DNA of 40,089 bases from Coriobacteriia bacterium (GTDB lineage: Bacteria > Actinomycetota > Coriobacteriia > Coriobacteriales > JAEZZM01), in contig JAUNLE010000003.1 in assembly GCA_030532415.1 (NCBI GenBank), forward strand, positions 11,107 to 51,195, in the 5' to 3' direction. Made by a program: the position numbers and the translations under genes. A model generated the notes under the pieces. It was not told where the DNA came from. It was given only the letters and a program-made list of their open reading frames with translations, and did not search any database. Below, piece by piece: positions 1,174 to 31,101 of this stretch (its first letter is position 1; each line of letters begins with the position of its first letter).

Positions 1174-1177
1174 AATA

Positions 1178-2933: not shown

Positions 2934-2954
2934 TTTATAAACCCGCTCAGTCGC

Positions 2955-5977: not shown

Positions 5978-5979
5978 TA

Positions 5980-10721: not shown

Positions 10722-10732
10722 CAGCCCTTTAG

Positions 10733-15767: not shown

Positions 15768-15803
15768 AAGAGGTTTAGCAAAACGCTAGACCTCTTCTTT
15801 TTT
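15768..15803 (+). terminator. Rho-independent terminator
   Basis: Stem AAGAGGTTTAGC / GCTAGACCTCTT (12 bp including one G-U) with loop AAAAC, followed by CTTTTTT. Confidence 0.75.
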
Positions 15804-15906
15804 GCTTATAATTTCTTGCTTTCTATATTTTCATTTAGCCAATAGTTGGTATATGATATTATTCACATTTTAAATAATAGAAAATCTTGAGAGGACACAT
15901 CACACA

Positions 15907-16347
15907 ATGTGGGCAGTATGTAATCCAAAAACAGAAGATGAACTTAACGAATGTGAAGCGCTTGGTCATTCACTCAGTAGACTTATGCAACCAACCATTC
16001 TTACGGTTTTAAAGAAATACAACGAACCACTGCATGGCTATGTGATCGTTCAAAAGGTTGCAGAATCACCTATGTTTGGTGGAAAAAAACCAGATCCAAC
16101 TGGTACCTATCGCACCTTAAAGAAGATGGAAGAATGCGGCTACGTAACCTCAGAATGGAAAACTCCTGAAAAAGGATCACCTAAAAGAGTTTTTAGCCTT
16201 ACTGATGCAGGAGAGCGCTGTTTGCGTCGTTGGATTGATGCGCTTGCCTGTTACACCTACACCATCGAACTCCTTCGCTCTGACGCTTCAGATTCTTTAG
16301 GAATAGATTTACCAGAACTTCCTCAGTGTCACCAAGCTGCTCAATAA
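15907..16347 (+). CDS. PadR-family transcriptional regulator
   Basis: 146-aa ORF. LTVLKKYNEPLHGYVIVQKV...GTYRTLKKMEECGYVTSEW matches the PadR winged-helix signature. Confidence 0.75.
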   Translation: MWAVCNPKTEDELNECEALGHSLSRLMQPTILTVLKKYNEPLHGYVIVQKVAESPMFGGKKPDPTGTYRTLKKMEECGYVTSEWKTPEKGSPKRVFSLTDAGERCLRRWIDALACYTYTIELLRSDASDSLGIDLPELPQCHQAAQ

Positions 16348-16896
16348 TTGGAACTTTCAATGCAAGAAGTATTTGGACGAGATATATCTGCCATATTTAA
16401 CCCAAGACCACTTGTCTTGATAGGGGTTTGCGATCAAGACAAGACTTGCAATTTCACCACGATTGTGTGGCTTACTCCTCTTTCTCACAACCCACCTTTG
16501 CTTGGCTTTTCTCTTCGAAAGCAGTCAAAAAGCTACAAAATTCTAGAAGAACACCCCCTATGTTCACTTAGTCTTTTTGATGATGAGGGTGCTCAAACCT
16601 TCGCTGAGTGTGGTCTGAAGAGCGGCAACAAAATAGATAAAACTCATGTTTTACCGTATCGTCTAGAAACAATTAACGAACAAGCAGTGCCGATTCCAGA
16701 AGCTGCCATAAGTCTTGCTATTGTTGAGGTTTATGAACGAATTGATTGCGGCGATCACGTTTTGCATCTTTGTAAAACACATAAGGCTTATTCCAAAGAA
16801 GTAATTGAGGACAATAAGCTCATCTCTACTCACCCACTCCTGTGTATTCAATCAAAACGGTATACCCAGGCTCATGCAGGTTTTGAAGTCGAATAG
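16348..16896 (+). CDS. Flavin reductase-like (FMN-binding split-barrel) protein
   Basis: 182-aa ORF. The N-terminal PRPLVLIGV...TTIVWLTPLSHNPPLLGFSL is typical of the flavin reductase domain. The start is uncertain: TTG at 16348 directly after the PadR TAA, or ATG at 16360. Confidence 0.7.
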   Translation: MELSMQEVFGRDISAIFNPRPLVLIGVCDQDKTCNFTTIVWLTPLSHNPPLLGFSLRKQSKSYKILEEHPLCSLSLFDDEGAQTFAECGLKSGNKIDKTHVLPYRLETINEQAVPIPEAAISLAIVEVYERIDCGDHVLHLCKTHKAYSKEVIEDNKLISTHPLLCIQSKRYTQAHAGFEVE

Positions 16897-16935
16897 CAAC
16901 AAAAAAGAATACAAGATGAGCTTATCTGCTAGTTC

Positions 16936-18312
16936 TTATAAAAGCTCTTGAGCAGCCCAGGCGCCATATTCTCCTGTCCACATACCTTGAAGCTGTTCGA
17001 AAACTTTATCCCAGTCGAACTTGTTTTCAAACACAAGCTCAAGATAGTTGAGTTGCGAAAAGCCAAGGCCATTCACGCTTTTTTCAGCAACATCTTGAAG
17101 TTCAGGATGACTAAGCGCATGAGATGCCATGGTATAAGCGCAGGTTGGGCAATTATTAACTTGTAGGTTAGCTACGGTAAGTCCTTCGTCAAAGAGCTCT
17201 TGAGCACGTTTTGGACCAATATCAGGGTCTACAAGCGAAGTTGATCCTGAAGCCCAGCAACATTGAGCATTTTTGCCACGATAGCGCATCTCTTTAATTT
17301 CGTTTTCTTTAAATAATTCTCTAATGCATGCACCATAGCGCTGGTCTCTATCATGACAGGAATCAAAGACACAAACTTGTGCCGCTTGATTCTTATCTTC
17401 TTGATCAGGAGATGCCTTGAGTGATTGTGCTACTTGATCTGAAGAAATCGTAACACCTTGCTCCACCAAGAGTCTTGGGAGCGGGATTAATTCAAATTCG
17501 TCATCACTATGAATAGCCTCTTTGAGCTCTTCTTCACAACCTGGGCAGACAAATACGATTTTTTTAATGCCCTGGCTTATCATGCGATCTCTTAGCGAAT
17601 CTTTGAAGGTAGTAAGATCTCTATAATTGCCTGCGCTCTTAAGTGGAGAACCGCAACAATCTTCAGTAATGATAGATGGATAACCGTGCTCGTTTAGCCA
17701 ATCAAACACCTCGCGCGTAAGTTCTGGCGCATAGCTTGCAAGCGTACAACCTGGGAAAAATAGATATTCAGGCTTGGTATTTTCTTTCGATTCACCATCT
17801 TGTGCCTCTTGCTCTTCACGCTCTTCTGCCGTGAGCAGGCGTGGCATATCAAGATATGAAATACCGTTAATCGCGCGGTAGGCAGAGAACAAGTGCCAAG
17901 GCTCATCAATTTTGGTGAGTCTAAAATCGCGTTTGTTAATTACATCTGCTTCGTACATTAAGGCACGAAGAGCGGTATAGGCTGCACGAGCATCAATATC
18001 TACAGGGCAGTAGATGGTGCAAAATCCGCACATGCAACAACGTCTGATTGCAAACAGAATATCTGGTCGAGTTGTGTGCAAAACCTTACGAACATGTTCG
18101 AAAAACTCTTCTTCAGGAGCGTTCAGCTTGCCTTCGCTTAAAAATGAAGTGGAAGGATCGTCTGGATCTCGCCACATTACGTGTTTACAGATTTGCCCAA
18201 TTGTTAGAGGGATTTCAGTATCGAGTACTACACATCGATGAGTACAAATTCCGCACTCAGTACAGCGATAAGCTGCATCTTCTATAACTTTGAGAACTGA
18301 GTTAAAATCCAC
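16936..18312 (-). CDS. HdrD/GlpC-like Fe-S oxidoreductase (2x[4Fe-4S] ferredoxin domain plus two CCG cysteine-rich domains)
   Basis: 458-aa ORF with CTECGICTHRC and CCMCGFCTIYCP cluster motifs. CCG-domain motifs are FFPGC, CCGSPL, CPGC and CCWASG..CPTC. GTG start at 18312 with AAGGGGAG 6 nt upstream. Confidence 0.85.
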   Translation of the reverse strand: MDFNSVLKVIEDAAYRCTECGICTHRCVVLDTEIPLTIGQICKHVMWRDPDDPSTSFLSEGKLNAPEEEFFEHVRKVLHTTRPDILFAIRRCCMCGFCTIYCPVDIDARAAYTALRALMYEADVINKRDFRLTKIDEPWHLFSAYRAINGISYLDMPRLLTAEEREEQEAQDGESKENTKPEYLFFPGCTLASYAPELTREVFDWLNEHGYPSIITEDCCGSPLKSAGNYRDLTTFKDSLRDRMISQGIKKIVFVCPGCEEELKEAIHSDDEFELIPLPRLLVEQGVTISSDQVAQSLKASPDQEDKNQAAQVCVFDSCHDRDQRYGACIRELFKENEIKEMRYRGKNAQCCWASGSTSLVDPDIGPKRAQELFDEGLTVANLQVNNCPTCAYTMASHALSHPELQDVAEKSVNGLGFSQLNYLELVFENKFDWDKVFEQLQGMWTGEYGAWAAQELL

Positions 18313-18380
18313 TGGTATCTCCCCTTTTTACCGTATGCTGCTTACTATGACAAAGCATATCATCAAGAAACGTCTTAACC

Positions 18381-18821
18381 CTACACTAATTTCATCGGCA
18401 TAGGCTTACACGTATCAACTACTGGACACTCCACACACTCAGCTCTTACGTTTGGCTCAATTTCATCCAAGTGCGCCGGCACAAAACCAAGCTTCTCATA
18501 AAAGCCGACTGAACTACCTCGAGCGACAAGCCTCAATTCACCATACTTTTTATGGACGTAGGCTATGAGCTCGCGACCAAGTCCATAGCCTCGCCAAAGT
18601 TCATTAACGACAATAGGGTTTACGTGAGCAACCTTTTGTTCATCAAAACTTAAACGAATTGCTCCTAAAACCTGATCATCTTCATTTACTATTACATACG
18701 CCGTATCACCTTCGGAAAAATCTCCTAAATTATCTTGTAAGGCGTAGTAATTGATCAGTTCAAGGTCATCTGATCGAGCCTCACGTATAGCAAGTGACTG
18801 TCCTACTTTATCTTCTAGCAT
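18381..18821 (-). CDS. GNAT-family N-acetyltransferase
   Basis: 146-aa ORF with acetyl-CoA motif NELWRGYGLGRELI. It overlaps the upstream gene by 7 nt. Confidence 0.8.
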   Translation of the reverse strand: MLEDKVGQSLAIREARSDDLELINYYALQDNLGDFSEGDTAYVIVNEDDQVLGAIRLSFDEQKVAHVNPIVVNELWRGYGLGRELIAYVHKKYGELRLVARGSSVGFYEKLGFVPAHLDEIEPNVRAECVECPVVDTCKPMPMKLV

Positions 18822-19792
18822 GGTGGCAAATAAATCTTTGATCGAGATTGTGGAATTGCTTTTTTGCCCAGCTCTTCAAGGCCTTTTATGACATCTGGCA
18901 TGACGCTCACTGGTATACCCATGACCATGTACTCATCCCCTATGTCGGTTGAGGCACGGCAGCCATAACAACCAAAAGAAATATTAATCTCATGATTGAG
19001 ATAAGGGAGCAGCGTTACCTCAACACACTGAGCATTATAGCCTGAAGCATGAAAATCATGACGATGGCCCGTGTAGTAAGAAGTAGCCATTGAAAGCCAC
19101 ATCATTTGCTCAGGAGTAGCAGTGACTGCAATGACCTCTGGCTGGGTCTTTGCTTTAGCGAGTGGAGTTACCACAGTAGCTTCGATGGTGTATGGATCTA
19201 AATGTGGGCGCTCTTTTACCATTTGCTGAGCAGCTTCAACCGTAGCAAGTTTATGGAAGAGAATATAGAGCTCTCCTGATGCAAGTTTCTTTGGCATCTC
19301 ACTTAAACCTAAGATTGAGGTACCGTCAGGACAGGCATGTCGATTGACCGGCAGCATAATTGAAAGACCTCGACGTGCAGCAAGAAGCGATTGGCAATAG
19401 CGCATATGCTCATTTGGAATTGGCACGTCTGGAAGAGGCTCTCCCTTTTTAATCAAAGAAATACTTACTGGCTCCCAGCGTAAGTTAAGAATATCTTTAA
19501 GCTTCTTCGCCCAGCTTGCGTAGAGTTCTTTTTCTTCTTTTCCCAAATCTTCTGCACGTTTAGCAACCTCAACAGGTTTAGCATTTGGATTAGGAATAAT
19601 CTTGATGCACTGTTCTGGACACTGTCCTGAGCACGTTTCACAACCCCAACACGCCTCTGGTTGCACTATCACAGGATAAGAATCCATCTCAAATACGTCG
19701 ACAGGACAAAAAGCCTCGCACAAACCGCAGCTCGTACATGCATCGAAGTCTATTTCAACACTATAATCAAAGGCAGTATTTTGTTCACTCAA
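18815..19792 (-). CDS. Fusion of a 2x[4Fe-4S] ferredoxin domain with a DUF169-like domain
   Basis: 325-aa ORF with N-terminal CTSCGLCEAFCP and CWGCETCSGQCP. The remainder (WEPVSISLIK..., MRYCQSL, GCYGCR) resembles DUF169/COG2043 from memory. Apparent TTG start. Confidence 0.65.
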   Translation of the reverse strand: MSEQNTAFDYSVEIDFDACTSCGLCEAFCPVDVFEMDSYPVIVQPEACWGCETCSGQCPEQCIKIIPNPNAKPVEVAKRAEDLGKEEKELYASWAKKLKDILNLRWEPVSISLIKKGEPLPDVPIPNEHMRYCQSLLAARRGLSIMLPVNRHACPDGTSILGLSEMPKKLASGELYILFHKLATVEAAQQMVKERPHLDPYTIEATVVTPLAKAKTQPEVIAVTATPEQMMWLSMATSYYTGHRHDFHASGYNAQCVEVTLLPYLNHEINISFGCYGCRASTDIGDEYMVMGIPVSVMPDVIKGLEELGKKAIPQSRSKIYLPPC

Positions 19793-19868
19793 AACGTATC
19801 GCCCTTTCTTTACTCATCTACTTTACGTTTGCAAAGGTAGTTCTTATGTAGTGCCAAGCTACAAAAAT

Positions 19869-21173
19869 TTAAGCTAAATGCGCCTTCATCCATGGTGGAT
19901 ACACGCGTTTACCCTGACTATTCGTTAAATGATAGGCACAAAATGGAATAATATTTCCATTTGGCATTGCCACACTCATTGAGCACTCTCTAAGGCGCTG
20001 TGTATCTAGGTTGTACGCGTCCATATAATTCATGATAATCAGTGATAAGCTTCGTGAATAATCTAGCTGCAAGTCTTCAGCAATATCGAAAAATACTGAA
20101 CCTTGTGGACTTGAAGGATTAAAACGGGCCTTAAAATCGTCATGCGTTATATGTCGAGTGATAGCCTCATAGCTTTGAGGATTATCTTTGTTTGCAATAA
20201 GAAGGGTGCCGGTATCACACAATGGGTGAGCACAACCGAGTGACCAAATATCATGAGGCTCTAAAATACCATCAGATTGTTCGGCAAGCTCAAAGATTAC
20301 ATCTCCCATGGTTAGCGGCAAGTGTTCAGCATCAAAACGACCTGAGGTAAATGCAGGCTGCAGTGCAAGTCCAGCTACCACGTCGATGTTATCAAGTGCA
20401 AACTTAAGCAAATCGCCCAGCTGTTGATCGTTGAGGCCTTTAATAACTGTCGTAGCAAGCACTACTTGAATATTTGCCTCACGACAGCGCTCAACAGCAC
20501 GTAATTTTTGTTTCAAAATATCACGGCCGCACGTTGCCTCGTACACCTCACTTGTCAAACCGTCGAATGAAAGGTAGACACCTGTAAGGCCTGCTTCGAC
20601 CAATTCTTCAAGATAACCGTCGCGCGTAGCAATTATAAGACCATTGGTGTTAAGCTCAATGCCCCAAAAGCCCTTGTCGCGACCCATTTTAATAATCTCG
20701 GCAAGGTTTTTGCGCATGGTAGGTTCGCCACCTGTAAGTTGCACAGCGCCGTCAACACCCGCAGCAGACTTTATCGTTTCATACATGATTCCGATTTCTT
20801 CTAAAGTCGGATCGTGTTTGTGGTTGTCTGCACTCATAAAGCACACTGGACAGCGTAAGTTGCATGCCTGGGTAACCTCAATTTCAAGTAAGGTTTGCTT
20901 GCGCTCGTGTCGAGAACAAGTACCACAACCCAAAGGGCAAGCCTTCGTGCGCGCTATCGTATTTTGAGGGGCAACTTTAGGAAGCTCTTGGTCCATAATC
21001 CAGCTATAGTGATCGAAATCCGGCCAAATATAGCTTTTGAACTCACCGTGCTCAGGACAGGTTCTTCTCATCCAAACCCTGTTATCATCCTCATATAAAA
21101 TAGCAGGCAATTCGCGCAAGCAGTCAGGACAAACCGCAGTTGTTTTGTCTATATCACGCATCAAATCTCGCAA
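19869..21173 (-). CDS. Radical SAM enzyme, COG1964-like architecture (N-terminal rubredoxin/Zn-ribbon, auxiliary Cys motif, rSAM core)
   Basis: 434-aa ORF with CPDC...CPEHG, then CPLGCGTCSRH, then the canonical CNLRCPVCF (Cx3Cx2C) and GGEPT. The start is ambiguous: TTG at 21173 or ATG at 21161. Confidence 0.85.
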   Translation of the reverse strand: MRDLMRDIDKTTAVCPDCLRELPAILYEDDNRVWMRRTCPEHGEFKSYIWPDFDHYSWIMDQELPKVAPQNTIARTKACPLGCGTCSRHERKQTLLEIEVTQACNLRCPVCFMSADNHKHDPTLEEIGIMYETIKSAAGVDGAVQLTGGEPTMRKNLAEIIKMGRDKGFWGIELNTNGLIIATRDGYLEELVEAGLTGVYLSFDGLTSEVYEATCGRDILKQKLRAVERCREANIQVVLATTVIKGLNDQQLGDLLKFALDNIDVVAGLALQPAFTSGRFDAEHLPLTMGDVIFELAEQSDGILEPHDIWSLGCAHPLCDTGTLLIANKDNPQSYEAITRHITHDDFKARFNPSSPQGSVFFDIAEDLQLDYSRSLSLIIMNYMDAYNLDTQRLRECSMSVAMPNGNIIPFCAYHLTNSQGKRVYPPWMKAHLA

Positions 21174-21211
21174 TCAAGTTACGCTTAAAACTTGTACTAA
21201 CTGATTTAAGC

Positions 21212-22069
21212 TTATTCGTCGATATAATTTCTAGGATCATGATTTGCATTTGGAGGCGTCACCGCACGAATGTTGTAGTAATCAATCCACTGGATTGAAC
21301 GGTGTGGCACAAAAAGATCATGTTGATATTTAGCAGCTTGTTCAATTGCGCGCATACAAGAAACTGCGTGAGCTAAATCTTGAGCCTCATCAATATCTGC
21401 TATTGGTGACAAGTAAACATTAGGAATATTTTTTTCAGCTAAATTTTCAACATATACATCAAGGGCAGCACGTCCGTTAACGTTGTAGTACACGTCGGTG
21501 TGGTCGATATCGGTATCTTTAGAATATCCAACTAAGGAAGTACCGCACTCTTGACAAGGTGCTTGAACAAAGCCAGGAGTACCTAAATCGTTGAAGTACT
21601 CAAGCCATCTAAATGCCTGCTTAATATGTTCTTTTGGCATGGTTGGAAGGTCGCCTCCAACTGACACTATCGACTCATAGCCCATGTCAAAGATTTGCTG
21701 AAATGCGTCGTTGAAGTGTTCATCGAAATTGGCACCAGAATCGCAAAGATAGTGAACTTCAAGAGGCCAAGGTCCGATTTTTTCAAAGGTCTTTTTCATC
21801 TCTTCAACATTTGAAGCTGGCGTCGTAGATACAAAAAAGTCGTATTGAATTTTTGTTGCATCTGGATCAGCCGCTACTAATTCATCATTTTCTTGTTGAA
21901 GCTCCATGAGAGCCTGCATGCTCAAATCGCTTACATCATAAAGACAGCGAGAGTAAAAATCAGCAACTTGCTCATCAGTAAACTTAGTCGTTGCAACGAG
22001 GCGCGTTTTTACTAAGCCTGGAAGTGGTGGTTTACTGAAAATAAGAAGTGCTTCTTTTTTTTGATTCAT
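21212..22069 (-). CDS. DUF2064/COG3222-like nucleotide-diphospho-sugar-transferase-fold protein (MobA/CofC-related fold)
   Basis: 285-aa ORF. The N-terminal LLIFSKPPLPGLVKTRL and the middle VGGDLPTMPKEHIKQAFRWL match my recollection of the DUF2064 consensus. RBS AGGAGA overlaps the stop codon of the upstream Mo enzyme gene. Confidence 0.6.
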   Translation of the reverse strand: MNQKKEALLIFSKPPLPGLVKTRLVATTKFTDEQVADFYSRCLYDVSDLSMQALMELQQENDELVAADPDATKIQYDFFVSTTPASNVEEMKKTFEKIGPWPLEVHYLCDSGANFDEHFNDAFQQIFDMGYESIVSVGGDLPTMPKEHIKQAFRWLEYFNDLGTPGFVQAPCQECGTSLVGYSKDTDIDHTDVYYNVNGRAALDVYVENLAEKNIPNVYLSPIADIDEAQDLAHAVSCMRAIEQAAKYQHDLFVPHRSIQWIDYYNIRAVTPPNANHDPRNYIDE

Positions 22070-22077
22070 ATCTTCTC

Positions 22078-24294
22078 CTAGATATTGGTATGTACTTTTT
22101 TAATTTCACACCTGAGTGCATTATATTTCCACGTGCCTATGACACCTTTGAAAATCTGGATATCGCAATCGGTCAGCTCATTTATATTTGATTCCTTATA
22201 GCCGCCAAAGCTCGGTTCTTTGAGCTCTTGCTCTGGATACCACCAGCCGTAATCAACGCTTACAACATTGGGGGCCATGCGAGCAAAAGCAAGCTTAAAG
22301 CGAGCAGAACCCACTTCGTTAGAGACTTCAACCCAATCCCCTTCATCCAATCCCAAAACGTGCGCTGTATCTGCGCTCATGGTAGCAAGTGGATGAGGAT
22401 AGACCTCTCTAAATTGTTTGCGATTATGATACATGCTTCCATTATAAGGTTGTTTTCTATTGCCGCTGATGAGATGAAGTCTAGGGCTTTGATTGATAGA
22501 ATTTTTCCCGCCAATTTCTACATATTCTTCTATTTCAACTTGTGGCAGTCTGCCAGCACCCAAGTTTTCAAACAGAGTGCTTGCAAGCTCTATTTTTCCG
22601 GAATAGGTAGAAAAACCGCGAAGTTTCGCTTCACCATCTTCTTGCAAGTACTTATAGTACTGTGGCGCTTGCGCATAGCTTCCATACTGCTCGAAATATT
22701 CTTCTGTAACATGAGCTTTCTCAAGACAGTATAAAATATCTTCTTTAAGCGTTTTACGAGGCCATTTGTCGGCTTGTCCCAAGCGCTTGCCTAATTCGTA
22801 ATAAACATCGTACTCATCTTTTCTTTCATGGAGTGGCTCTATAGCAGCAAGGCCACCATAGGCTAGGTTTGCAACTCCCCCATGAAGCTGTAGCATAGGG
22901 CGTTCTAAAACGCCTGTTACCGGCAAGATGTAGTCGGCAAGTGCAGTAGTCGATGTCATAGTATGCTCAAGACAAACGAGTAAATCCAAAGATTTGAGTG
23001 CCGATAAAACCTGTTCACTATTCGCATACGTTAAAAGCGGATTAGTTGCTTGTACAATTAAAGCTTTAATTGGATACGGCTCATGCTCGAGCATCGCTTT
23101 GAAAACTAAGTCCGGATGCGCTGAGGTCATATAACGCATTGGTAGTGCTAGCTCGTGTTTTTGAGTATAGCCCAAGACCTCTTCATATCCTTTAAAGCAT
23201 TGAAGGGGCGTAATGGCTGTATTAAGGCAGAAAGATTTAGCCTCATCAGTTAGCTCTTCGCCCATCTCGAGTGAAAGCTCACTTACAAAATCGGGCTTGG
23301 TGTTAAGTACACAGGCACCAGGCTTATCGATTTGTCCGCAAATGGCCCTTAATATGTTGATTGACCTATGAGTTGCAAGCGTATTTTTGCCAAGCTGGTC
23401 AACTCCACGCCCACTCACGATACAAAAAGATTGTGCATGAGCAAGCGTGTGAGCAAGCTTTTGAATAGAAGCTGCTGCAATCCCACATACATCAGCGGCA
23501 TACTGAAGTGTATAGGAGTCCACATAGGTCTTAAGCTCATCAAAGCCATAACAGTACTTTGAGACAAAATCCTTATCGTAGAGCTCCTCATAAATTATTT
23601 CTCTAATGAGCGCGAGCAATAAAACAGGATCCGTACCTGGGGTAATAGCGAGCCAATCATCACTTTTACGAGCAGTTTGCGTGTAGACAGGATCGACGGC
23701 AATGATCTTGGTATCGGTTTTGGCAAGTTTTAGAATAGTTCGCCAAAACATTGAATTATCTGATTGAGAGGGATTTGTACCCCAAAGCATAAGAACTTCT
23801 GTTTTGCCAAATTGAATATCGGGCTCTATAGTCCAGCCAAGTTGAATGGTTTCAGTCCAAATGCGTGGATTCCAGCATATTTGACCGATACCCATATTAT
23901 TTGGCGAGCCAAGTATATTCATGAATCTGTGGAGCGGCCAGTATACGGTATGAGGTCCTCCAATAGCACTTGCGATCGTTTGAGGACCATAGTGTTTGCT
24001 TAGTGATTCAATCTTTTCAGCAATTTCATCGAGCGCCTCATCCCACGTTATGCGCTCAAATTCGCCAGAGCCTCTTTTGCCGACACGACGCAGCGGGTAG
24101 TTAATTCGAGACTCGCCATATACATCTTCTAAAATGGTTTTCCATCTTCTGCAACCATTCATAATTTGCTTACTATATGGGTAGCGAGTTTCATCGGGCA
24201 CTAACTCGCTTACTACTCCATCTTCGACTTTAGCAATAAGACCACAAAGATAACCACAATATTGACAAACGGTCCGCTTGAACTGAGTTGTCAT
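22078..24294 (-). CDS. Molybdopterin oxidoreductase, DMSO reductase family, cytoplasmic type (MoOx-2)
   Basis: About 738-aa ORF with FS0 motif CQYCGYLC...C, RINYPLRRVGKRGSGEFERITWDEALDEIA and no Tat signal. I prefer the ATG at 24294 (AAAGG 6 nt upstream) over the TTG at 24300 in the ORF track. Confidence 0.9.
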   Translation of the reverse strand: MTTQFKRTVCQYCGYLCGLIAKVEDGVVSELVPDETRYPYSKQIMNGCRRWKTILEDVYGESRINYPLRRVGKRGSGEFERITWDEALDEIAEKIESLSKHYGPQTIASAIGGPHTVYWPLHRFMNILGSPNNMGIGQICWNPRIWTETIQLGWTIEPDIQFGKTEVLMLWGTNPSQSDNSMFWRTILKLAKTDTKIIAVDPVYTQTARKSDDWLAITPGTDPVLLLALIREIIYEELYDKDFVSKYCYGFDELKTYVDSYTLQYAADVCGIAAASIQKLAHTLAHAQSFCIVSGRGVDQLGKNTLATHRSINILRAICGQIDKPGACVLNTKPDFVSELSLEMGEELTDEAKSFCLNTAITPLQCFKGYEEVLGYTQKHELALPMRYMTSAHPDLVFKAMLEHEPYPIKALIVQATNPLLTYANSEQVLSALKSLDLLVCLEHTMTSTTALADYILPVTGVLERPMLQLHGGVANLAYGGLAAIEPLHERKDEYDVYYELGKRLGQADKWPRKTLKEDILYCLEKAHVTEEYFEQYGSYAQAPQYYKYLQEDGEAKLRGFSTYSGKIELASTLFENLGAGRLPQVEIEEYVEIGGKNSINQSPRLHLISGNRKQPYNGSMYHNRKQFREVYPHPLATMSADTAHVLGLDEGDWVEVSNEVGSARFKLAFARMAPNVVSVDYGWWYPEQELKEPSFGGYKESNINELTDCDIQIFKGVIGTWKYNALRCEIKKVHTNI

Positions 24295-24303
24295 TATCAA
24301 CCT

Positions 24304-25194
24304 TTACTTACTATTTAATGATTTGTAATTTCGGACACCACTAAGGTCTTCAAAAAGAAAACGCGTATCAATATGCGTTCTAACCCTATCCCAGTCCACG
24401 AATGAATCGAAAAGAAACTCAAGATAGTAATAAGTTGGTACGAGATTTTGTGAGAAATGTAAGACCTGAGTACAGCTGAAACAGTCGGTTACTAAGGCAT
24501 CGGCATTTGCATCAAGCGCTTCTTGTCCTTTATAGCGCGAAGCAGCTTCTCCCTCATCATATTTGCCAACTGCATTTAACAAAGAGCCACAGCATCTACT
24601 TGTCTTAGGGGTATGATCCAGTTCGACAAGGGCATCTGGCTTAAAGAGCGCACGAGCCGGTGCACCAAACTTTTGTTTCTTGAGATCTTTACATGCATCA
24701 AAAAACGCGAGCTTAGCATCCGTATTTCCAAGTTCTTTGTGGATAACTTCGGTATCTGTTTGACATCCAAGTTCTACTAACACTTGTGGAAGTGCAAGAA
24801 TTTCAATATCGTCGAGAATTTCGGCATCTTTAAATAAGCCACTAAATTCAATATTACAAGAGGGACAGGCTAAAACGATTTTTTTCACGCCATGATTATG
24901 AAGGGCCTCTAAGAGTCGCTCTCCATGTGACTTTCGAAAGCTTTTGTCATTTTCCCATCTAAGTAGTGAGCCGCAGCACACTAAGCTTATTCCTTGAACG
25001 ACATTCGCTTCACGTAAAATCTTATAGGTCTTGTCTACAATATCTAATGACATATTTAAGTATGCACAGCCTGGAAAGAAAATTGATTCAACGTGCTTTG
25101 CTTCAATCGGCTGTGTTTGTGAAATCGTATCCACATCACCATCAAAGCTCACTCTCGTATCAACGAGCACGTCATCAAAAGTGAATGTTTCCAT
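24304..25194 (-). CDS. HdrB-like protein with two CCG cysteine-rich domains
   Basis: 296-aa ORF with FFPGC, CCGSLL, CPSC, then FFDAC, CCGSLL, CFSC. RBS AAGGGGA. First gene of the locus-2 operon. Confidence 0.8.
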   Translation of the reverse strand: METFTFDDVLVDTRVSFDGDVDTISQTQPIEAKHVESIFFPGCAYLNMSLDIVDKTYKILREANVVQGISLVCCGSLLRWENDKSFRKSHGERLLEALHNHGVKKIVLACPSCNIEFSGLFKDAEILDDIEILALPQVLVELGCQTDTEVIHKELGNTDAKLAFFDACKDLKKQKFGAPARALFKPDALVELDHTPKTSRCCGSLLNAVGKYDEGEAASRYKGQEALDANADALVTDCFSCTQVLHFSQNLVPTYYYLEFLFDSFVDWDRVRTHIDTRFLFEDLSGVRNYKSLNSK

Positions 25195-25302
25195 TTTTTA
25201 TCCCCTTATGTATATGGTAAACGTGGCATTTGCAAAGCTCATGCACAAATATATCCCATCCATTTATCTCAATGTATAACGCACTATTAGATAAAGTCAA
25301 GT

Positions 25303-25310
25303 ATTATACA
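25303..25310 (-). promoter_or_regulatory. Possible extended -10 element (TGTATAAT) for the locus-2 operon
   Basis: The minus strand reads TGTATAAT about 110 nt upstream of the ATG at 25194. The -35 is poor, so this rests on the sequence pattern only. Confidence 0.3.
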
Positions 25311-25381
25311 AGTTAAGGGGTATTCATGAAGAAATGCTTGAGAACATCTAAACTATCAAGGTTATTCTCATTTGATTTATA

Positions 25382-27043
25382 CTAGCTCTCATCCTGTGCA
25401 AGTAATTTCATTTCTTTCACTTTTTTCTCAACTAAAGAAATTAACTCTTGCTGTGATTGGACTTCAAGTTTGTTATAGATATTATATCTATGTGATTTTA
25501 CTGTATTTTTTGATATAAATAATTTTTTATGAATAAACTCTGTATCGCGTCCATGTGAAAGCAACTCAAATACCTCAAGTTGTCTACTCGACAATCCCTG
25601 TTGTTGTGCAATTTCTTTAATGCTTTCTCGCCAGAACTGCGGTGCTTCATACTCTTCAAGTTCCTTATTTTTAAAATTAGCTGGATTCTCAAACGACGAA
25701 CGAACGAAAAAAGTAAATACAAACAAAGCAAACAGACTAAGCAAACAAAAAACCATCAAAGCAAAAGGACCTAGCTTCAATATAATCCAACCGACTATCC
25801 AGCCACATAACATACCAAAAGCATTCCAAAAACGGCCGTGAGCAAATTCTTGAAGCTTGGGAAGCTTATACGTTTGAATGATTAATGCAATTTTCCATAA
25901 GTTCAATATGTCATAACAAGCAAAACAAATTGCAAATAAAGCATACGTTAAATATTTATACTCATCAAAAATATAAGGAGTTAGCAATAGAACTAACACT
26001 TCAACGCTAAGCAATATTCTGAAAATATTGTCTATTGAAATATATTTAAAAAAATGAAACCAATATAACAATAATAGCGAACCTGGCAAAAGCATAGAGA
26101 TGTACAAATACTGGTTTTCTTCAGATGCAAAATTAGCTCCTATACAAAGCATTGTTGCGAAGACAAATGCATAGAAAAATATCTCTAGGCCAAAATAAGG
26201 AAAAGAAAAGACTTTCCCATCAGAGTCATAATTTTCAAGCTTAATGTAATTCGATACATATATATCAATTGAACGTGTTAATCTATTACGAACTTTTCTT
26301 TCTTCACAAATCTCGACTTTCACATTTTTGTTTTGCCAGTTTGAGACTTCCGTATGTTCTGTGACAGACAGGTCAAGAGGATCTTCGTTCGTCTTTTTAT
26401 CATTTTGCACAAATAATTTTAATTGGCTTTGCCGAAATACATGATATATCAAGATCAGAAAAACCAAGCAGACTAACAGTGCTAGTGAAACCACAAATTG
26501 ATTTTGATTAGATAACAAAATATACAGTAAGGAAGTTAATATTAAACCAAAACTTACAATATAAGCAATATCATCACGGTGGAGGGCTGTGAGAATATGA
26601 CCCATCGCAAGCAGAGCGGCTGCCAACGTAGTGCCTGTTAGATACCAAGATATAACTATGAAAGGAAGTGGCAAAATAACATTACCATTAAGAAAATTTA
26701 ATATTGAAGGCATAATAAAAAGTAAAAGTGATCCAATCATAAAGATATATGCAGGAATGAGAAACTTTTCAGTCTTTATTTTCTTATTAAAATGCCAAAA
26801 TATTGCTAGGAACACAGTTGATCCAAAAAAAGCAGACCCTTTTAAAATAATGCTGATATGCTCAAACTCAGTTGGATACACATTGAAAATATCAGTATGA
26901 TAAATCAGGAACATCAGGACCCAATAAAATGTAAAAATTAGAAAACCTAAAACATTATATGGGGTAATAAAACAAAAAACTCCATCAAAAGCCTCATTAT
27001 CTATAGAATTATTTGATTGAGTCACGTCTTTTTGCATTTTCAT
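25382..27043 (-). CDS. Polytopic-membrane LuxR-family one-component regulator
   Basis: 553-aa ORF with about 12-14 hydrophobic helices, interrupted by a soluble loop of about 80 aa. The C-terminal LSSRQLEVFELLSHGRDTEFIHKKLFISKNTVKSHRYNIYNKLEV is a LuxR HTH. Confidence 0.85.
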   Translation of the reverse strand: MKMQKDVTQSNNSIDNEAFDGVFCFITPYNVLGFLIFTFYWVLMFLIYHTDIFNVYPTEFEHISIILKGSAFFGSTVFLAIFWHFNKKIKTEKFLIPAYIFMIGSLLLFIMPSILNFLNGNVILPLPFIVISWYLTGTTLAAALLAMGHILTALHRDDIAYIVSFGLILTSLLYILLSNQNQFVVSLALLVCLVFLILIYHVFRQSQLKLFVQNDKKTNEDPLDLSVTEHTEVSNWQNKNVKVEICEERKVRNRLTRSIDIYVSNYIKLENYDSDGKVFSFPYFGLEIFFYAFVFATMLCIGANFASEENQYLYISMLLPGSLLLLYWFHFFKYISIDNIFRILLSVEVLVLLLTPYIFDEYKYLTYALFAICFACYDILNLWKIALIIQTYKLPKLQEFAHGRFWNAFGMLCGWIVGWIILKLGPFALMVFCLLSLFALFVFTFFVRSSFENPANFKNKELEEYEAPQFWRESIKEIAQQQGLSSRQLEVFELLSHGRDTEFIHKKLFISKNTVKSHRYNIYNKLEVQSQQELISLVEKKVKEMKLLAQDES

Positions 27044-27196
27044 ACTAGCATCTACTGGTATTTTCGGGTATACATTAGTTTCAATGATACCTTACAATCA
27101 TTTAGTTATAAGCTGCTTAGATAAATTGAATTATTGTTAGCATACAAAAACTAAAGTTTCTATTAATTTAACCGTCTTACCAGAAAGGAGAAAAAG

Positions 27197-27376
27197 ATGT
27201 GCGGATATGCATGCATACAATGCGGTCGATGCGGCAAAAAAGTTTCAAAAATCTCTAAAAACACTTTTCACGTAGCTGGCCTCTGTGAAGCCTGTGGAAC
27301 ATTGAATAGCCCGAGCGCAAAAATTTGTAAGAAATGTAGCCAGGATCTTATTTCTCCAGCTAAACAGCATAATTAA
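27197..27376 (+). CDS. Uncalled 59-aa Cys-rich zinc-ribbon-like small protein
   Basis: My manual translation gives MCGYACIQCGRCGKKVSKISKNTFHVAGLCEACGTLNSPSAKICKKCSQDLISPAKQHN (9 Cys). Strong RBS AAAGGAGA lies 6 nt upstream. It is one residue under the ORF-track cutoff. Confidence 0.55.
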   Translation: MCGYACIQCGRCGKKVSKISKNTFHVAGLCEACGTLNSPSAKICKKCSQDLISPAKQHN

Positions 27377-27587
27377 TACCCGCGGTATGAGGTAATTTTT
27401 TCTATAATCTACCTGATTTCATCTTCTCGGACCATAGCGGACCCCCTCGAACTTCCTCATAGTAAGAAGCACCTAAGTTTGTAAAGTGCTGCGATAGGCT
27501 TTGTAAAAAGTCAATCAAGCCAATTGGTCAAAAGCCCAAAACACGAGCTTCTGGCCATTCTATGAAGTTGCTATTGGAGGAGGAACC

Positions 27588-29819
27588 ATGGAAGACAAGG
27601 GATACACATTTGTTCCCCATGAAAAGCCGTTTAAGTATACGGAAGACGGCTTAAAAGTAACACGGGGCAGCGCCTGGACTGGTCCTGGCTGTCACATTGG
27701 ATGCGGCGTACTTTTATACACTGATGAAAATGACAAGCTTGTCAAGGTAGAGGGAGATCCTGAAAACCCCTTTAACGAAGGCAGACTGTGTGCTCGTTGT
27801 TTAGCACTGCCAGAAACGGTTAACCACGAAGACCGCCTGAAGTACCCTATGAAACGAAGCAGAGACGACCGCGGTAAAGACAAGTGGGAACGCATTTCAT
27901 GGGAAGAAGCACTTGATACGATTGCCGACAAGCTCATTGATATCCGAGATACATATGGCCCTGAAACTGTGGCTTTCTATCAGGGTACTGGCCGTGATAT
28001 TGCTGCTTGGATTACCCGTTTATGCTGGTCATACGGTAGCCCAAACTACATCTTCGGTATGTCTGGTATGTCTTGCTACCTTCCTCGTGTTGCAGGATGT
28101 TTTGCAACGACTGGCTCATTTTGGTTAGGAGACTATTCACAACAATTTGCCCAGCGATACAAAGACCCTCGTTGGAAGCGTCCTGACGTTATTTTGTTGT
28201 GGGGTAATAACCCAGTCGTTTCCAATTCCGACGGTCTTTATGGTCACTGGGTTGTCGACCTCATGAAGATGGGAACGAAGTTTATTACCGTTGACCCTCG
28301 CCGCACCTGGTTAGCCAGCAAGTCAGAGCAATTCTGCCAAATCAGACCTGGAACCGACGCTGCGCTAGCAATGGGCATGCTTAAAGTCATTATTGATGAA
28401 GAACTCTACGACCATGACTTCGTAGACAAGTGGTGTTATGGTTTTGACGAACTTGCAGAGCGAGTAAGAGAATTTACTCCTGAAAAAGTAGAGCATATCA
28501 CTAATGTTCCTGCTGAGACGATGAAAGAAGCTGCTCGTTTGTTTGCTAAAGCAGACAGCGCAATCGTTCAATGGGGCCTTGCTGTTGATACTACAAAAGA
28601 GGCACTTCCTGCTTGTCAAGCAATTTCTGCACTTTTTGAAATCACTGGCAATATTGACAATCCTGGTGGAATGATTTCGCCTCCTTCAATTCTCTACTAC
28701 GCAGGTGGTTGGGGCGATGAGTTCTTAGATCCTGAGGTTGCAAAGAAACGTATTGGTCTTGATAAATATTCGCTCTTAAACTTTGGTTTCCAAGTTGCAT
28801 CAACCGACGAAATGCTTAAGACGATTGAAACGAAACAGCCCTATGAGATGCGCGCAGCTTGGTTGCAAACCACAAACTTCCTTACCTGTACTGCCCCAGA
28901 TCCTCATAGAACAATCAAGGCATTTAGAAACCTTGATTTCATCGTGGGCGTTGACCTCTTTATGACCCCAACTTTAATGGCACTTGCAGATATTGTTCTA
29001 CCTGCAGCAACCTATGCTGAGCGCGATGGTTTGCGAGTGGGCGACGGTGTACAACGCGGTGAGGCTATCAACAAAGTCACGCAAGTTGGAGAAGCTAAAT
29101 CTGATATGGAAATCAACCTGCTTTTAGGCAAAAGACTTCGCCCCGAAGCATGGCCATGGGATAACGTACGTGATATGTTCAGCTACATCCTTGAAGATGC
29201 AGGCGTAGGTATGAACTTTGATGAACTTCAAGAACACGCTCCTGCCTACATTCCTTTTGAATACTACAAGTATAAAAAAGGACTACTCAGAGCTGATGGA
29301 AAACCAGGATTTGAAACTCCTACAGGGCGTATCGAGCTGTGGAGTAACTTCTACAATAACGCCGGTCTTGACCCGCTCCCCTACTTTGAAGAACCAAGCC
29401 CTGGTCCACTTTCAACGCCAGAACTCCTTGATGAATATCCACTTGTGTTAACCACAGGCGCACGAGACTTCACCATTTTCCACTCTGAAAGCCGTCAGAT
29501 AGAGCACCTGCGTGCTGTTCACCCTGACCCAATCGTTCAGGTAAACCCAGCAACTTGTCGCACCTATGGCATCAGTGAGGGCGACTGGGTTTGGATTGAA
29601 AATGATCGTGGTCGCTGCAAGAGAAAAGTTGAAGAAACGTTAATTGTTGATGAGAATACTATTTCAACTGATCACGCATGGTGGTTCCCAGAAGGTGATC
29701 CAGAAAACCTCTACGATGTATTCGATTTGAACATTAACAATTTATTTCAATACATTCCTGGTAAATCTGGCTTCGGGTGTAACTACAAGACTCTGTTATG
29801 TAAGATTTACAAAGCTTAG
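27588..29819 (+). CDS. Molybdopterin oxidoreductase, DMSO reductase family, cytoplasmic type (MoOx-3)
   Basis: 743-aa ORF with RBS GGAGGAGG, RLKYPMKRSRDDRGKDKWERISWEEALDTIA and a normal C-terminal end TLLCKIYKA. The FS0 motif is incomplete (GPGCHIGCG...C). No Tat signal. Confidence 0.9.
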   Translation: MEDKGYTFVPHEKPFKYTEDGLKVTRGSAWTGPGCHIGCGVLLYTDENDKLVKVEGDPENPFNEGRLCARCLALPETVNHEDRLKYPMKRSRDDRGKDKWERISWEEALDTIADKLIDIRDTYGPETVAFYQGTGRDIAAWITRLCWSYGSPNYIFGMSGMSCYLPRVAGCFATTGSFWLGDYSQQFAQRYKDPRWKRPDVILLWGNNPVVSNSDGLYGHWVVDLMKMGTKFITVDPRRTWLASKSEQFCQIRPGTDAALAMGMLKVIIDEELYDHDFVDKWCYGFDELAERVREFTPEKVEHITNVPAETMKEAARLFAKADSAIVQWGLAVDTTKEALPACQAISALFEITGNIDNPGGMISPPSILYYAGGWGDEFLDPEVAKKRIGLDKYSLLNFGFQVASTDEMLKTIETKQPYEMRAAWLQTTNFLTCTAPDPHRTIKAFRNLDFIVGVDLFMTPTLMALADIVLPAATYAERDGLRVGDGVQRGEAINKVTQVGEAKSDMEINLLLGKRLRPEAWPWDNVRDMFSYILEDAGVGMNFDELQEHAPAYIPFEYYKYKKGLLRADGKPGFETPTGRIELWSNFYNNAGLDPLPYFEEPSPGPLSTPELLDEYPLVLTTGARDFTIFHSESRQIEHLRAVHPDPIVQVNPATCRTYGISEGDWVWIENDRGRCKRKVEETLIVDENTISTDHAWWFPEGDPENLYDVFDLNINNLFQYIPGKSGFGCNYKTLLCKIYKA

Positions 29820-30312: not shown

Positions 30313-31101
30313 ATGGACAGCTCTGTCAATCATGGAAAAAATTTGGCCATGGCGTTTTTATTTGGAGGGACCTTTGCGCTTATTGGACAAATTATTTTAT
30401 CACTGGTAGCTCCTATTTCAGGACCGGCATTCGCAGGACCCATTACCTTACTGTGCTTTGGTGTTATCGCCTTAGTCATGTACATCCCAGGCATTCATCA
30501 CAAACTAGCACCATTAGCTGGCTTTGGTCTTATTTTGCCTTTTAATGGATTTGCAAGCGGTATTGCAGATGCATTTCAAGCAGGCTACCTTCCAAAAAAG
30601 GATTTCTCATCAGGTCTTCGCTCAGCTCTTAAACTTTTCTTTATAGTCATTGGTATCGGTGGACTTATAGACTTTCTTGCTGGAGTATTTGGATTTTACG
30701 TAAGTCTTCCGCAAATTACTCCGCCAGAAGCTCTTACTGGCGTTGCAGCTTTGATTGGAGCCTTCCTCGTAGGTGGAGGACTTTGCGTGGTGTTCCAGCT
30801 CTTTTTAGAGTTCACAAAGGTTCCTGTACCAGTGCTGCTTGTTTGCGGTTTAGCCTTAGGTGGTATTTGCACCTTATTCGGATTAACCGATATACTAGCT
30901 TCTCTTGGTGGTGGCGGATTTACCATCTTAGTTGTTGGAGCAGGACAGGCCGTCACTCTTACGACGATGCTTTTAATGCAAGGTCAACCCATGATGCTTT
31001 TGCTCGTGCTCTCAATTTTTGTAACCTTGTTCGTCGTGGGTATTATCTGCGCACTTGGAAATGCTGCTCTCAAACCATCTGACAATACAAAAACCGCATA
31101 G
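30313..31101 (+). CDS. Membrane protein with two tandem SpoVAC/SpoVAEB-like domains
   Basis: 262-aa ORF. AFLFGGTFALIGQ...AGFGLILPFNGFASG is followed by a second copy, AFLVGGGLCVVFQ...GGGGFTILVVGAGQA. Both resemble the SpoVAC/SpoVAEB signature (FLVGGxICxIGQ...AGAGxxVPxxGF, from memory). RBS AAGGGGAG. Confidence 0.55.
   Translation: MDSSVNHGKNLAMAFLFGGTFALIGQIILSLVAPISGPAFAGPITLLCFGVIALVMYIPGIHHKLAPLAGFGLILPFNGFASGIADAFQAGYLPKKDFSSGLRSALKLFFIVIGIGGLIDFLAGVFGFYVSLPQITPPEALTGVAALIGAFLVGGGLCVVFQLFLEFTKVPVPVLLVCGLALGGICTLFGLTDILASLGGGGFTILVVGAGQAVTLTTMLLMQGQPMMLLLVLSIFVTLFVVGIICALGNAALKPSDNTKTA

Follow-up and report, generated by a model that had tools for sequence, protein, structure and literature searches.

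A radical SAM-centred gene set accompanies molybdenum enzymes of the acetylene hydratase clade in Coriobacteriia and other bacterial phyla

The catechol dehydroxylases Dadh, Hcdh, Cadh and Dodh fall into a clade of bis-molybdopterin guanine dinucleotide (bis-MGD) enzymes related to acetylene hydratase, and they occur in two arrangements: an outward-facing Eggerthella lenta type, in which an enzyme bearing a signal for twin-arginine translocation (Tat) is combined with a 4Fe-4S protein and a membrane anchor, and a Gordonibacter type that is soluble, lacks a Tat signal and is encoded with a small ferredoxin and a neighbouring major facilitator superfamily (MFS) transporter (PMC7028382). Here, we describe a seven-gene operon from the same bacterial family as these Eggerthella and Gordonibacter dehydroxylases, located in a 40,089-nucleotide stretch of DNA from a Coriobacteriia bacterium (assembly GCA_030532415.1, contig JAUNLE010000003.1; hereafter the window, with all positions counted from its first letter). 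The operon encodes a soluble molybdenum (Mo) enzyme, MoB, together with an HdrB-like protein containing two CCG domains (CCG2), a DUF2064 protein, a radical S-adenosylmethionine (SAM) enzyme (rSAM), a ferredoxin-DUF169 fusion (Fd-DUF169), a GNAT acetyltransferase and an HdrD-like protein. Its components come from known families, i.e., an acetylene-hydratase/dehydroxylase-type Mo system joined to an undescribed accessory set. To our knowledge, no described dehydroxylase operon includes radical SAM, DUF2064, DUF169, GNAT or CCG proteins, no radical SAM, CCG or NrfD partner of acetylene hydratase is known, and CCG proteins are not known as partners of bis-MGD enzymes. As detailed below, the seven genes are a genuine operon and the Coriobacteriia form of a gene set present in at least five bacterial phyla.

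The open reading frame (ORF) list returned the same coordinates and spacing for the seven co-directional minus-strand genes (Table 1) as had been given in a preliminary description of this DNA, with intergenic gaps of 3 or 9, 8, 38, 76, −7 and 68 nt. The first gap depends on the start of MoB, which is either a TTG (740 aa) or an ATG two codons further in (738 aa, leaving the 9-nt gap), and the negative value reflects a 7-nt overlap of the GNAT ORF with that of Fd-DUF169. Pfam and NCBIfam profile searches bore out the earlier domain calls gene by gene. MoB starts with MIMTTQFKRTVCQYCGYLCG, carries all four FS0 cysteines and has no twin-arginine signal, both features being visible in the sequence as previously noted. 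For the HdrD-like protein, said to comprise two [4Fe-4S] sites and two CCG domains, the layout held up and the domain count did not, as Pfam scores a single CCG domain because the second motif reads CCW. A promoter and terminator scan of positions 15800–27700 yielded counts equal to the shuffled expectation and was uninformative as to operon boundaries. That the arrangement goes beyond chance is not evident from the window alone, and follows from its conservation among relatives.

To assess this conservation, homologues of the rSAM and Fd-DUF169 proteins were collected and their gene neighbourhoods inspected, the rSAM alignment was used to scan one genome per GTDB species, the window proteins were run by tblastn against the resulting loci, and synteny was tabulated over 26 related loci, 20 of them from Coriobacteriia. 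The block DUF2064–rSAM–Fd-DUF169–GNAT was intact in all 20 Coriobacteriia loci (with GNAT inverted once). MoB lies directly upstream of this block wherever the Coriobacteriia sequence reaches far enough, except in L014 and L020, and CCG2 directly precedes MoB in most Coriobacteriia loci with upstream sequence, frequently with a 4-nt overlap; the seven genes of one locus (L084) meet in six junctions, of which five are 4-nt overlaps. In Coriobacteriia, Bacillota, Geobacter and Anaerolineales, MoB orthologues with 44–53% identity (35% in L019) are neighbours of the rSAM gene. The HdrD-like gene is an optional member of the operon, present in seven of the 20 Coriobacteriia loci (L001, L009, L011, L012, L016, L083 and L084) and inverted in the Raoultibacter locus L001. 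A contig from Anaerolineales (Chloroflexota; L089) bears the order HdrD-like–rSAM–MoB–DUF2064–Fd-DUF169–flavin reductase–GNAT with overlapping frames. As it keeps the same families together in a different order and in a different phylum, this contig is the strongest single result in favour of functional coupling. Chance juxtaposition, for which the variable HdrD-like gene and a variable LuxR gene next to the operon are the sole points, is ruled out by the block's presence in 20 of 20 Coriobacteriia loci and its recurrence, with overlapping frames, in Chloroflexota. The preliminary description had treated the seven genes as a functional unit and had raised co-conservation of only the Mo-enzyme and CCG genes as the observation that would speak otherwise; synteny gave the opposite picture, with the highest constancy shown by the four genes it had termed 'tailoring' (all 20 Coriobacteriia loci, and L089 in another order). 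In a termite-gut Coriobacteriales metagenome-assembled genome (MAG; L014, 13295–14626), the four-gene module is convergent with and abuts moeA, and a Pst/PhoU phosphate transporter is encoded upstream.

The gene set extends beyond these seven members. In Coriobacteriia relatives with enough sequence, the genes directly upstream of CCG2 encode a second Mo enzyme (MoA, 950–990 aa), a DmsB/PsrB-type ferredoxin (the iron-sulphur or FeS subunit) and the NrfD-type membrane protein, the orthologue of which is found directly upstream of either CCG2 or the rSAM gene in relatives. In the window, this MoA-FeS-NrfD trio is encoded on the same strand as the operon, and nrfD and CCG2 are ~11 kb apart; the intervening stretch contains genes for a leucine-rich-repeat (LRR) protein, a MalT-type regulator, a SpoVA-like membrane protein, a membrane LuxR protein and a third Mo enzyme (MoC) with its ferredoxin. 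Ancestrally, the window operon formed the downstream half of a unit that begins MoA-FeS-NrfD-CCG-MoB; in the window, this unit is split. The window FeS subunit is 53–74% identical to its counterpart in relatives, and window MoA is 65% identical to that of Raoultibacter (L001); across phyla, MoA identity amounts to 58–65%, which is unusually high. Full-length MoA orthologues begin at the FS0 motif and have no Tat signal, and the MoA-FeS-NrfD complex is on this basis predicted from sequence to be one that should face the cytoplasm. The SoeABC sulfite dehydrogenase provides a precedent for a Tat-less, cytoplasm-facing Mo-FeS-NrfD complex that exchanges electrons with quinones. We cite SoeABC for its layout alone; MoA is closest to acetylene hydratase and not to enzymes of the Soe/Psr type. 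Coriobacteriia copies of MoA bear an additional C-terminal extension of ~210 aa with aromatic-rich repeats and a weak match to the OCRE Pfam family.

A search seeded with the Desulfitobacterium rSAM protein and the gene neighbourhoods read from it, considered together with loci from the genome scan, revealed the set in compact form outside Coriobacteriia. This core, ordered MoA-FeS-NrfD-rSAM-MoB, was found in Desulfitobacterium, Dehalobacter, Anaeroselena (Sporomusaceae), Geobacter and an unclassified Bacillota MAG, and a Bacteroidota MAG shares the layout as judged by Pfam. In the three loci whose gene calls permit the measurement, rSAM and MoB overlap by 4–8 nt. The rSAM gene comes after MoA-FeS-NrfD either directly or following a short gap; except for a chemoreceptor insert in Geobacter (L085), nrfD is immediately followed by rSAM in the loci that are from neither Coriobacteriia nor Anaerolineales. 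The radical SAM gene, which had been counted among the tailoring genes, is no lineage-specific addition: of all partners of the Mo enzymes, it is conserved most widely, being seen in at least five phyla. Recurrent neighbours of the core are sigma-54 activators, MFS transporters, a metallo-β-lactamase (MBL) gene and flavin reductase, and the core is followed by genes for molybdenum cofactor (Moco) synthesis in Dehalobacter (L090; moeA, moaA, moaC, moaB and mobB) and in Geobacter (L085; moaC, moaB and mobB). In Desulfuromonas acetoxidans (L087, 10327–11509), ~1.2 kb without a convincing ORF occupies the place of MoB between rSAM and MoC. An inosine-uridine-type nucleoside hydrolase is encoded beside the core in three distant genomes (L018, 15938–16852; L084, 18921–19763; L090, 12650–13537); it could serve in the disposal of 5′-deoxyadenosine or hint at a nucleoside substrate.

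Further genes belong to this wider system, and the seven-gene boundaries drawn in the preliminary description proved too narrow: relatives add MoA-FeS-NrfD, MoC with its ferredoxin, the MBL protein, flavin reductase and a PadR regulator. MoC orthologues (43–47% identity) adjoin the core in six loci (L012, L017, L018, L021, L086 and L087), followed in all of these but L012 by orthologues of the small ferredoxin (32–44% identity); the hosts of these loci are Desulfitobacterium, an unclassified Bacillota MAG, Anaeroselena, Desulfuromonas, Trichloromonas and an Eggerthella MAG. Since MoC and ferredoxin orthologues adjoin the core elsewhere, MoC is no random insert between nrfD and CCG2. Across the system, MoA-FeS-NrfD accompanies MoB and rSAM nearly without exception, and MoC does so often. 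PadR orthologues (61–69% identity) flank the cluster in 13 of the 20 Coriobacteriia loci; PadR comes after the cluster, often together with flavin reductase, which is itself found beside the cluster in L003, L005, L007, L010 and L019, beside the core in Desulfuromonas (L087) and within the operon in L089. The MBL protein scores 135 bits against the PhnP profile, which is under the PhnP cut-off, and is 57% identical to an Adlercreutzia protein encoded directly upstream of MoA; the Desulfuromonas copy is 43% identical to that of Adlercreutzia. Nine of the 26 tabulated loci have an MBL orthologue next to the system, and in Coriobacteriia it often precedes MoA-FeS-NrfD; the window MBL gene is a displaced member of the system. 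The membrane LuxR gene (25382–27043), by contrast, which had been noted as sitting directly upstream, is not conserved beside the operon in any relative. It was rejected as the operon's regulator, having no counterpart in any related locus. It is divergent to MoC, an arrangement described for Eggerthella reductase regulators. The recurrent regulator is PadR in Coriobacteriia and a sigma-54 activator in other phyla.

Table 1 Coordinates of the operon and of associated genes in the window.
Feature	Position	Strand	Basis
CCG2, HdrB-like, 296 aa	24304-25194	minus	Pfam: two CCG domains, both motifs complete
MoB, soluble bis-pyranopterin Mo/W enzyme	22078-24300	minus	Pfam Molybdop_Fe4S4 + Molybdopterin + Molydop_binding
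DUF2064 protein, 285 aa, GT-A/nucleotidyltransferase-like fold	21212-22069	minus	Pfam DUF2064
Radical SAM enzyme (rSAM), Tes/TrsS family, 434 aa	19869-21173	minus	Pfam Radical_SAM + N-terminal Zn_ribbon_HMPTM
Fd-DUF169, 2x[4Fe-4S] ferredoxin fused to DUF169, 325 aa	18815-19792	minus	Pfam
Small GNAT acetyltransferase, 146 aa	18381-18821	minus	Pfam Acetyltransf_1/7/10
HdrD-like protein, 2x[4Fe-4S] + CCG module, 458 aa	16936-18312	minus	Pfam CCG + weak Fer4_7
NrfD-type membrane anchor of MoA complex	36148-37083	minus	Pfam NrfD
Four-cluster ferredoxin (Fer4_11, DmsB/PsrB type) of MoA complex	37086-37664	minus	Pfam
MoA, membrane-anchored acetylene-hydratase-clade Mo enzyme	37665-40089, runs off window end	minus	Frame open to end
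MoC, third acetylene-hydratase-clade Mo enzyme, soluble type, 743 aa	27588-29819	plus	Pfam
Small ferredoxin partner of MoC, 110 aa	29837-30169	plus	Fer4_11
PadR-family regulator	15907-16347	plus	Pfam PadR
Flavin reductase (PF01613), convergent neighbour of operon	16348-16896	plus	Pfam
PhnP/PqqB-like MBL-fold protein, N-terminal CxCxxC motif	2142-2933	plus	Lactamase_B_2

The three Mo enzymes are mutual paralogues with 30–38% identity (31% between MoC and MoB). Among solved structures, the best relative is the acetylene hydratase of Pelobacter acetylenicus (2e7z) for both MoB (E = 3e-93; 317 bits vs 178 bits for the next) and MoA (E = 2e-122; 413 bits vs 254 bits), with polysulfide/thiosulfate reductase a distant second. 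By sequence comparison, MoA, MoB and MoC are closest to acetylene hydratase, whose clade holds the catechol dehydroxylases. MoA and MoB share with acetylene hydratase their length, domain order, cytoplasmic location without a Tat signal, the FS0 cysteines and the Cys141 ligand. Equivalents of C9, C12, C16, C46 and C141 are kept in all aligned MoA, MoB and MoC proteins, the exception being an Ala aligned at the C9 position of MoC. However, identity to the window enzymes is only 31–37%, and both the catalytic Asp13 and the hydrophobic ring are changed. The Asp13 position is occupied by Gly in eight of eight MoB proteins and by His in MoC and all seven MoA proteins; MoB has other residues at every one of I14, I142, W179, W293 and W472, and MoA and MoC retain only W293. 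With Asp13 replaced and the hydrophobic acetylene pocket lost, an identity of these enzymes as acetylene hydratases was rejected. As for the dehydroxylases, MoA resembles the E. lenta type in combining a Mo enzyme, a 4Fe-4S protein and an anchor but lacks the Tat signal, and MoC resembles the Gordonibacter type in being a soluble Mo enzyme with a small ferredoxin. MoB, in contrast, has the partner of neither type, and CCG proteins stand in their place. The preliminary description had paired the Mo enzyme with CCG proteins and not with a DmsB-type ferredoxin; this is correct for MoB, which is without a DmsB-type partner, but not for the system, in which a DmsB-type ferredoxin accompanies MoA.

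The rSAM protein scores 366.7 bits against the TrsS profile (NF045646; cut-off 490), aligning over positions 2–440 of 441, while true TrsS proteins reach 503–607 bits, and it scores 331 bits, in two stretches, against the Tes profile (NF045702; cut-off 450). Identity falls into tiers, with 60–67% within Eggerthellaceae, 47–54% to other core loci and at most 38% to TrsS and Tes, which sets this protein and its orthologues apart from both families. Its AlphaFold model (predicted local distance difference test score, pLDDT, 91.2) was matched by Foldseek to the Tes protein GDGT-MAS (7tol) over the whole length (template modelling (TM) score 0.85; E = 4e-41; 478 aligned columns), whereas the next-best folds, MoaA and SkfB included, gave TM scores of ≤0.46. 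Its predicted fold is that of Tes, and TrsS is its sister family. It resembles GDGT-MAS in sequence (32% identity), an N-terminal zinc-ribbon or rubredoxin-like module, several cysteine clusters and a C-terminal cluster domain, the conserved sets in rSAM being C15/C18/C39/H42, C79/C83/C86, C104/C108/C111 and C230/C319/C397/C412. It differs in length (434 aa vs 526 aa in Tes), in residues 320–370 that are unaligned by sequence, and in its surroundings, as the window host is a bacterium without archaeal lipids and the genomic context of rSAM consists of soluble redox proteins.

For the sister family, we read the gene content of ten TrsS loci (L053, L045, L028, L034, L062, L065, L068, L074, L080 and L082) from Clostridia and Deltaproteobacteria, namely Blautia, Oscillospiraceae, Terrisporobacter, Syntrophobacter, Desulfarculia, Desulfomicrobium and Desulfobulbaceae. 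Their common set comprises a Mo aldehyde oxidoreductase of the xanthine oxidase family, diclust_near_Sec (a fusion of NAD-binding, ferredoxin and CCG parts), a methyltransferase (seen in six of the ten loci), a C-GCAxxG-C-C protein, TrsS itself and a PaaK-like CoA ligase. Such loci (DVU_1553–1556 type) parallel the window operon in uniting a radical SAM enzyme, a molybdopterin enzyme and a CCG iron-sulphur protein. However, their Mo enzyme is unrelated to the MoB family; the aldehyde oxidoreductase, diclust_near_Sec, the DVU_1556 methyltransferase, the DVU_1555 protein and the DVU_1553 CoA ligase are missing from the operon and its relatives, the C-GCAxxG-C-C protein and MbdU of TrsS loci are missing from the operon, and DUF2064, DUF169 and GNAT are missing from TrsS loci. 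Some loci of Chloroflexota and Sphaerochaetaceae carry tandem TrsS copies.

CCG2 is a paralogue of the HdrD-like protein's C-terminal half (27% identity, E = 2e-25), and the best NCBIfam match of both proteins is the CCG part of the TrsS-locus protein diclust_near_Sec. Their likeness to HdrB and HdrD resides in the CCG motifs (CxnCCGxmCxxC; two in CCG2) and in the layout of two [4Fe-4S] sites plus CCG in the HdrD-like protein, which differs from HdrD in having one canonical and one degenerate (CCW) motif. Profiles of GlpC, TfrB and diclust_near_Sec align over residues 89–398 of the HdrD-like protein, covering both halves, but every named profile, be it HdrB/HdrD, GlpC, TfrB, LutA or LdhH, scores far under its cut-off, and no HdrA, HdrC or HdrE partner is encoded in the window or the 26 related loci. 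The DUF2064 protein falls short of TIGR04282 (62.8 bits; cut-off 134) and matches CofC with E = 0.0016 and the putative nucleotide-diphospho-sugar transferase 3cgx in the PDB with E = 2.8e-8. In the Fd-DUF169 model (pLDDT 86.7), Foldseek matched only the ferredoxin part to the PDB, so that the DUF169 part represents a fold without a solved relative. Its invariant residues (C133, H152, C154, D156, C256 and C275, with C278 nearly invariant) suggest, together with the fused ferredoxin, a metal or redox site. For GNAT, we found neither an NCBIfam equivalog nor a close characterised relative, and PDB sequence searches with GNAT and CCG2 returned nothing informative.

The data above establish gene content, order, conservation, family and fold assignments, cytoplasmic location and the differences from acetylene hydratase; beyond these, we infer a substrate class, an electron path and a helper role. 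The interpretation that we favour, tentatively and with less than even confidence, is that of a cytoplasmic, quinone-linked Mo system that acts on a small, probably phenolic compound and is served by an rSAM-centred maturation or cofactor module. The Mo enzymes would perform reductive or hydroxyl-shifting chemistry on this intracellular organic compound, and MoA would link that chemistry to the menaquinone pool. The two CCG proteins, Fd-DUF169 and flavin reductase would feed low-potential electrons to MoB and the rSAM clusters; MoB has no DmsB-type partner, and in Coriobacteriia and Anaerolineales these proteins are the obvious candidates for soluble carriers. The rSAM enzyme, joined by DUF2064, DUF169 and GNAT in Coriobacteriia and Anaerolineales, would act as a helper module that makes or installs something the Mo enzymes need, such as a tailored cofactor or an active-site modification, and would not turn over the bulk substrate. 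A phenolic substrate is proposed in view of the clade membership of the Mo enzymes, the PadR regulator, the MFS transporters and the chemoreceptor within the Geobacter operon. Several considerations favour the helper role: radical SAM enzymes usually consume SAM stoichiometrically, which suits maturation better than an energy-yielding bulk pathway; the sister protein TrsS accompanies another pyranopterin enzyme, the shared elements being the pyranopterin cofactor and CCG proteins, and both window CCG proteins match the one from TrsS loci best; the four-gene module can stand alone beside moeA (L014); Moco synthesis genes, as a full or partial set, come after the core in L090 and L085; and the accessory proteins resemble small-molecule biosynthetic enzymes. 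The alternative of a cofactor made in situ, raised in the preliminary description, likewise stays a live reading. That Tes/TrsS-family radical SAM enzymes are dedicated maturases of pyranopterin enzymes, and that in Coriobacteriia and Anaerolineales the four-gene module, with DUF2064 as a MobA/CofC-like transferase, builds a modified Mo/W cofactor or a new prosthetic group for the acetylene-hydratase/dehydroxylase clade, is a stronger proposal that we consider unlikely.

A number of observations weigh against such a quinone-linked Mo system with a helper module. In L014 and L020, the four-gene module occurs without any Mo gene within 8–10 kb; in Desulfuromonas (L087) and Trichloromonas (L021), MoA-FeS-NrfD-rSAM and MoC are kept and MoB is absent, which weakens the case for rSAM as a MoB-specific maturase. 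Most cores outside Coriobacteriia lack the CCG proteins, DUF2064, DUF169 and GNAT, and the contribution of these proteins is dispensable there. Besides, an Rfam scan of the window and five loci detected no Moco riboswitch and no other element, Moco genes near Mo enzymes are common and hence weakly informative, the phenolic substrate is proposed from clade membership and types of neighbours, and the sole characterised relative of rSAM (GDGT-MAS/Tes) acts on lipid tails and not on proteins or pterins. In the main rival interpretation, possible in our view though rather doubtful, rSAM, DUF2064, Fd-DUF169 and GNAT would successively process the small molecule on which the Mo enzymes also act, in biosynthesis, salvage or detoxification and not in respiration. 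Possible steps are C–C or C–S bond formation by rSAM, nucleotidyl or glycosyl transfer by the DUF2064 protein, a redox reaction by DUF169 and N-acetylation by GNAT. Genes of one operon usually serve one pathway, and all four accessory proteins look like small-molecule enzymes; TrsS loci resemble small-molecule pathways, with their CoA ligase, methyltransferase and aldehyde oxidoreductase; the nucleoside hydrolase recurs beside the core, and LysE and MFS transporters and a chemoreceptor are encoded in or near the loci. On the other hand, a quinone-linked MoA-FeS-NrfD complex in the same operon suggests a bulk flow of electrons, most phyla that keep the core lack three of the four accessory genes, and no candidate substrate can be named for such a pathway.

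The remaining alternatives assign the accessory genes to more specific chemistries. The preliminary description had envisaged a coupling to a low-molecular-weight thiol or disulfide; in such a scheme, the four genes would make this compound, the CCG proteins would recycle it and MoB would use it as reductant. The CCG domains of HdrB do reduce a heterodisulfide, the operon is flanked by two CCG proteins, and a GNAT enzyme ends mycothiol synthesis, the window GNAT giving a weak match to MshD (E = 0.0023). This coupling found no support in our tests: a cysteine ligase, a sulfur-transfer enzyme and an Msh/Bsh-type glycosyltransferase are not present, the enzymes served by CCG proteins also include those for lactate, glycerol-3-phosphate, succinate and glycolate, in which no thiol is the substrate, the operon can lack the HdrD-like gene, and cores outside Coriobacteriia do without all these genes. 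We therefore regard it as improbable. Action of the Tes-like rSAM on an isoprenoid chain, for instance that of menaquinone at NrfD, as part of membrane-lipid handling, would accord with the whole-length Tes fold (TM 0.85) and with the position of its gene directly after nrfD outside Coriobacteriia and Anaerolineales (the chemoreceptor insert of Geobacter L085 aside). Yet the protein stays under the Tes cut-off (331 vs 450 bits), sister TrsS loci hold soluble proteins only, and in Coriobacteriia and Anaerolineales the enzyme is encoded among soluble proteins, apart from nrfD, which renders this option quite improbable. Highly improbable, finally, is the reduction and alkylation of As, Se, Sb or Te species, comparable to the functions of ArsS, ArsL, ArsN and ArsM. 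The arsenosugar-associated transferase TIGR04282 is the nearest named family of the DUF2064 protein, TrsS loci carry an ArsM-like methyltransferase and metal-binding MbdU, and window positions 58–3905 encode ArsM-like, DUF5714/MbdU-like and CobW-like proteins. However, the DUF2064 protein is far under the TIGR04282 cut-off, GNAT matches no ArsN model, rSAM is Tes/TrsS-like and not of the ArsS type (TIGR04167), and the ArsM-, MbdU- and CobW-like genes recur in none of the 26 related loci, the MBL gene alone being syntenic; these genes were hence rejected as parts of the system.

Other genes in the window were recorded in passing. The 58–3905 segment encodes a CobW-related GTPase, a DUF5714 protein with a 143-bit match to the N-terminal half of MbdU, a metal-binding selenoprotein, the PhnP-like MBL protein and the ArsM-like methyltransferase; a TrsS locus of Blautia also holds an MbdU-like gene together with an ArsM-like methyltransferase gene. 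This window segment is followed by genes for an AAA_5 (MoxR/dynein-like) ATPase of 479 aa and a 586-aa protein without a Pfam or NCBIfam match (4217–7419), and by a fourth Mo enzyme (929 aa, no Fe4S4-domain match) adjoining a 906-aa MalT/LuxR-type regulator (7773–13453). The plus-strand segment 13767–15707 encodes a DUF7685/DUF7686/DUF7713 protein, a protein consisting of only the trigger-factor C-terminal domain, and a 104-aa family-less protein with a cysteine motif. Within the stretch that separates nrfD from CCG2, a SpoVAC/SpoVAEB-like membrane protein (30313–31101) is encoded in a Coriobacteriia-like genome not expected to sporulate, next to a second MalT/LuxR-type regulator (31317–34076) and a surface protein with LRR and Listeria-Bacteroides repeats (34244–35857).

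No characterised pathway, no NCBIfam equivalog above its cut-off and no publication was found for this gene combination, in agreement with the preliminary description, which had recognised no described pathway. Literature searches yielded nothing on DUF2064 or DVU1553–1557, DUF169 in gene lists only, TrsS in a selenoprotein table only and DVU1559 in unrelated papers only; a preprint on SAO selenoproteins concerns a different locus. The cluster appears to be vertically conserved in Eggerthellaceae, i.e., in gut bacteria that use Mo enzymes to inactivate drugs and to alter polyphenols of the diet as well as neurotransmitters, and it unites three members of one enzyme clade in an undescribed arrangement. 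Its core is also found in Geobacter, Desulfitobacterium, Dehalobacter and Sporomusaceae, several of which are culturable or genetically tractable. The system ties DUF169, DUF2064 and a TrsS-like radical SAM enzyme to Mo enzymology. If the rSAM-centred module does mature or tailor the Mo enzymes, this could explain why active expression of this clade is difficult, and would provide functions for DUF169, DUF2064 and the TrsS family as well as a new step in Moco biology; a modified Mo/W cofactor would constitute a new branch of the latter. Should the genes instead form a small-molecule pathway, they would represent a new anaerobic route tied to the quinone pool.

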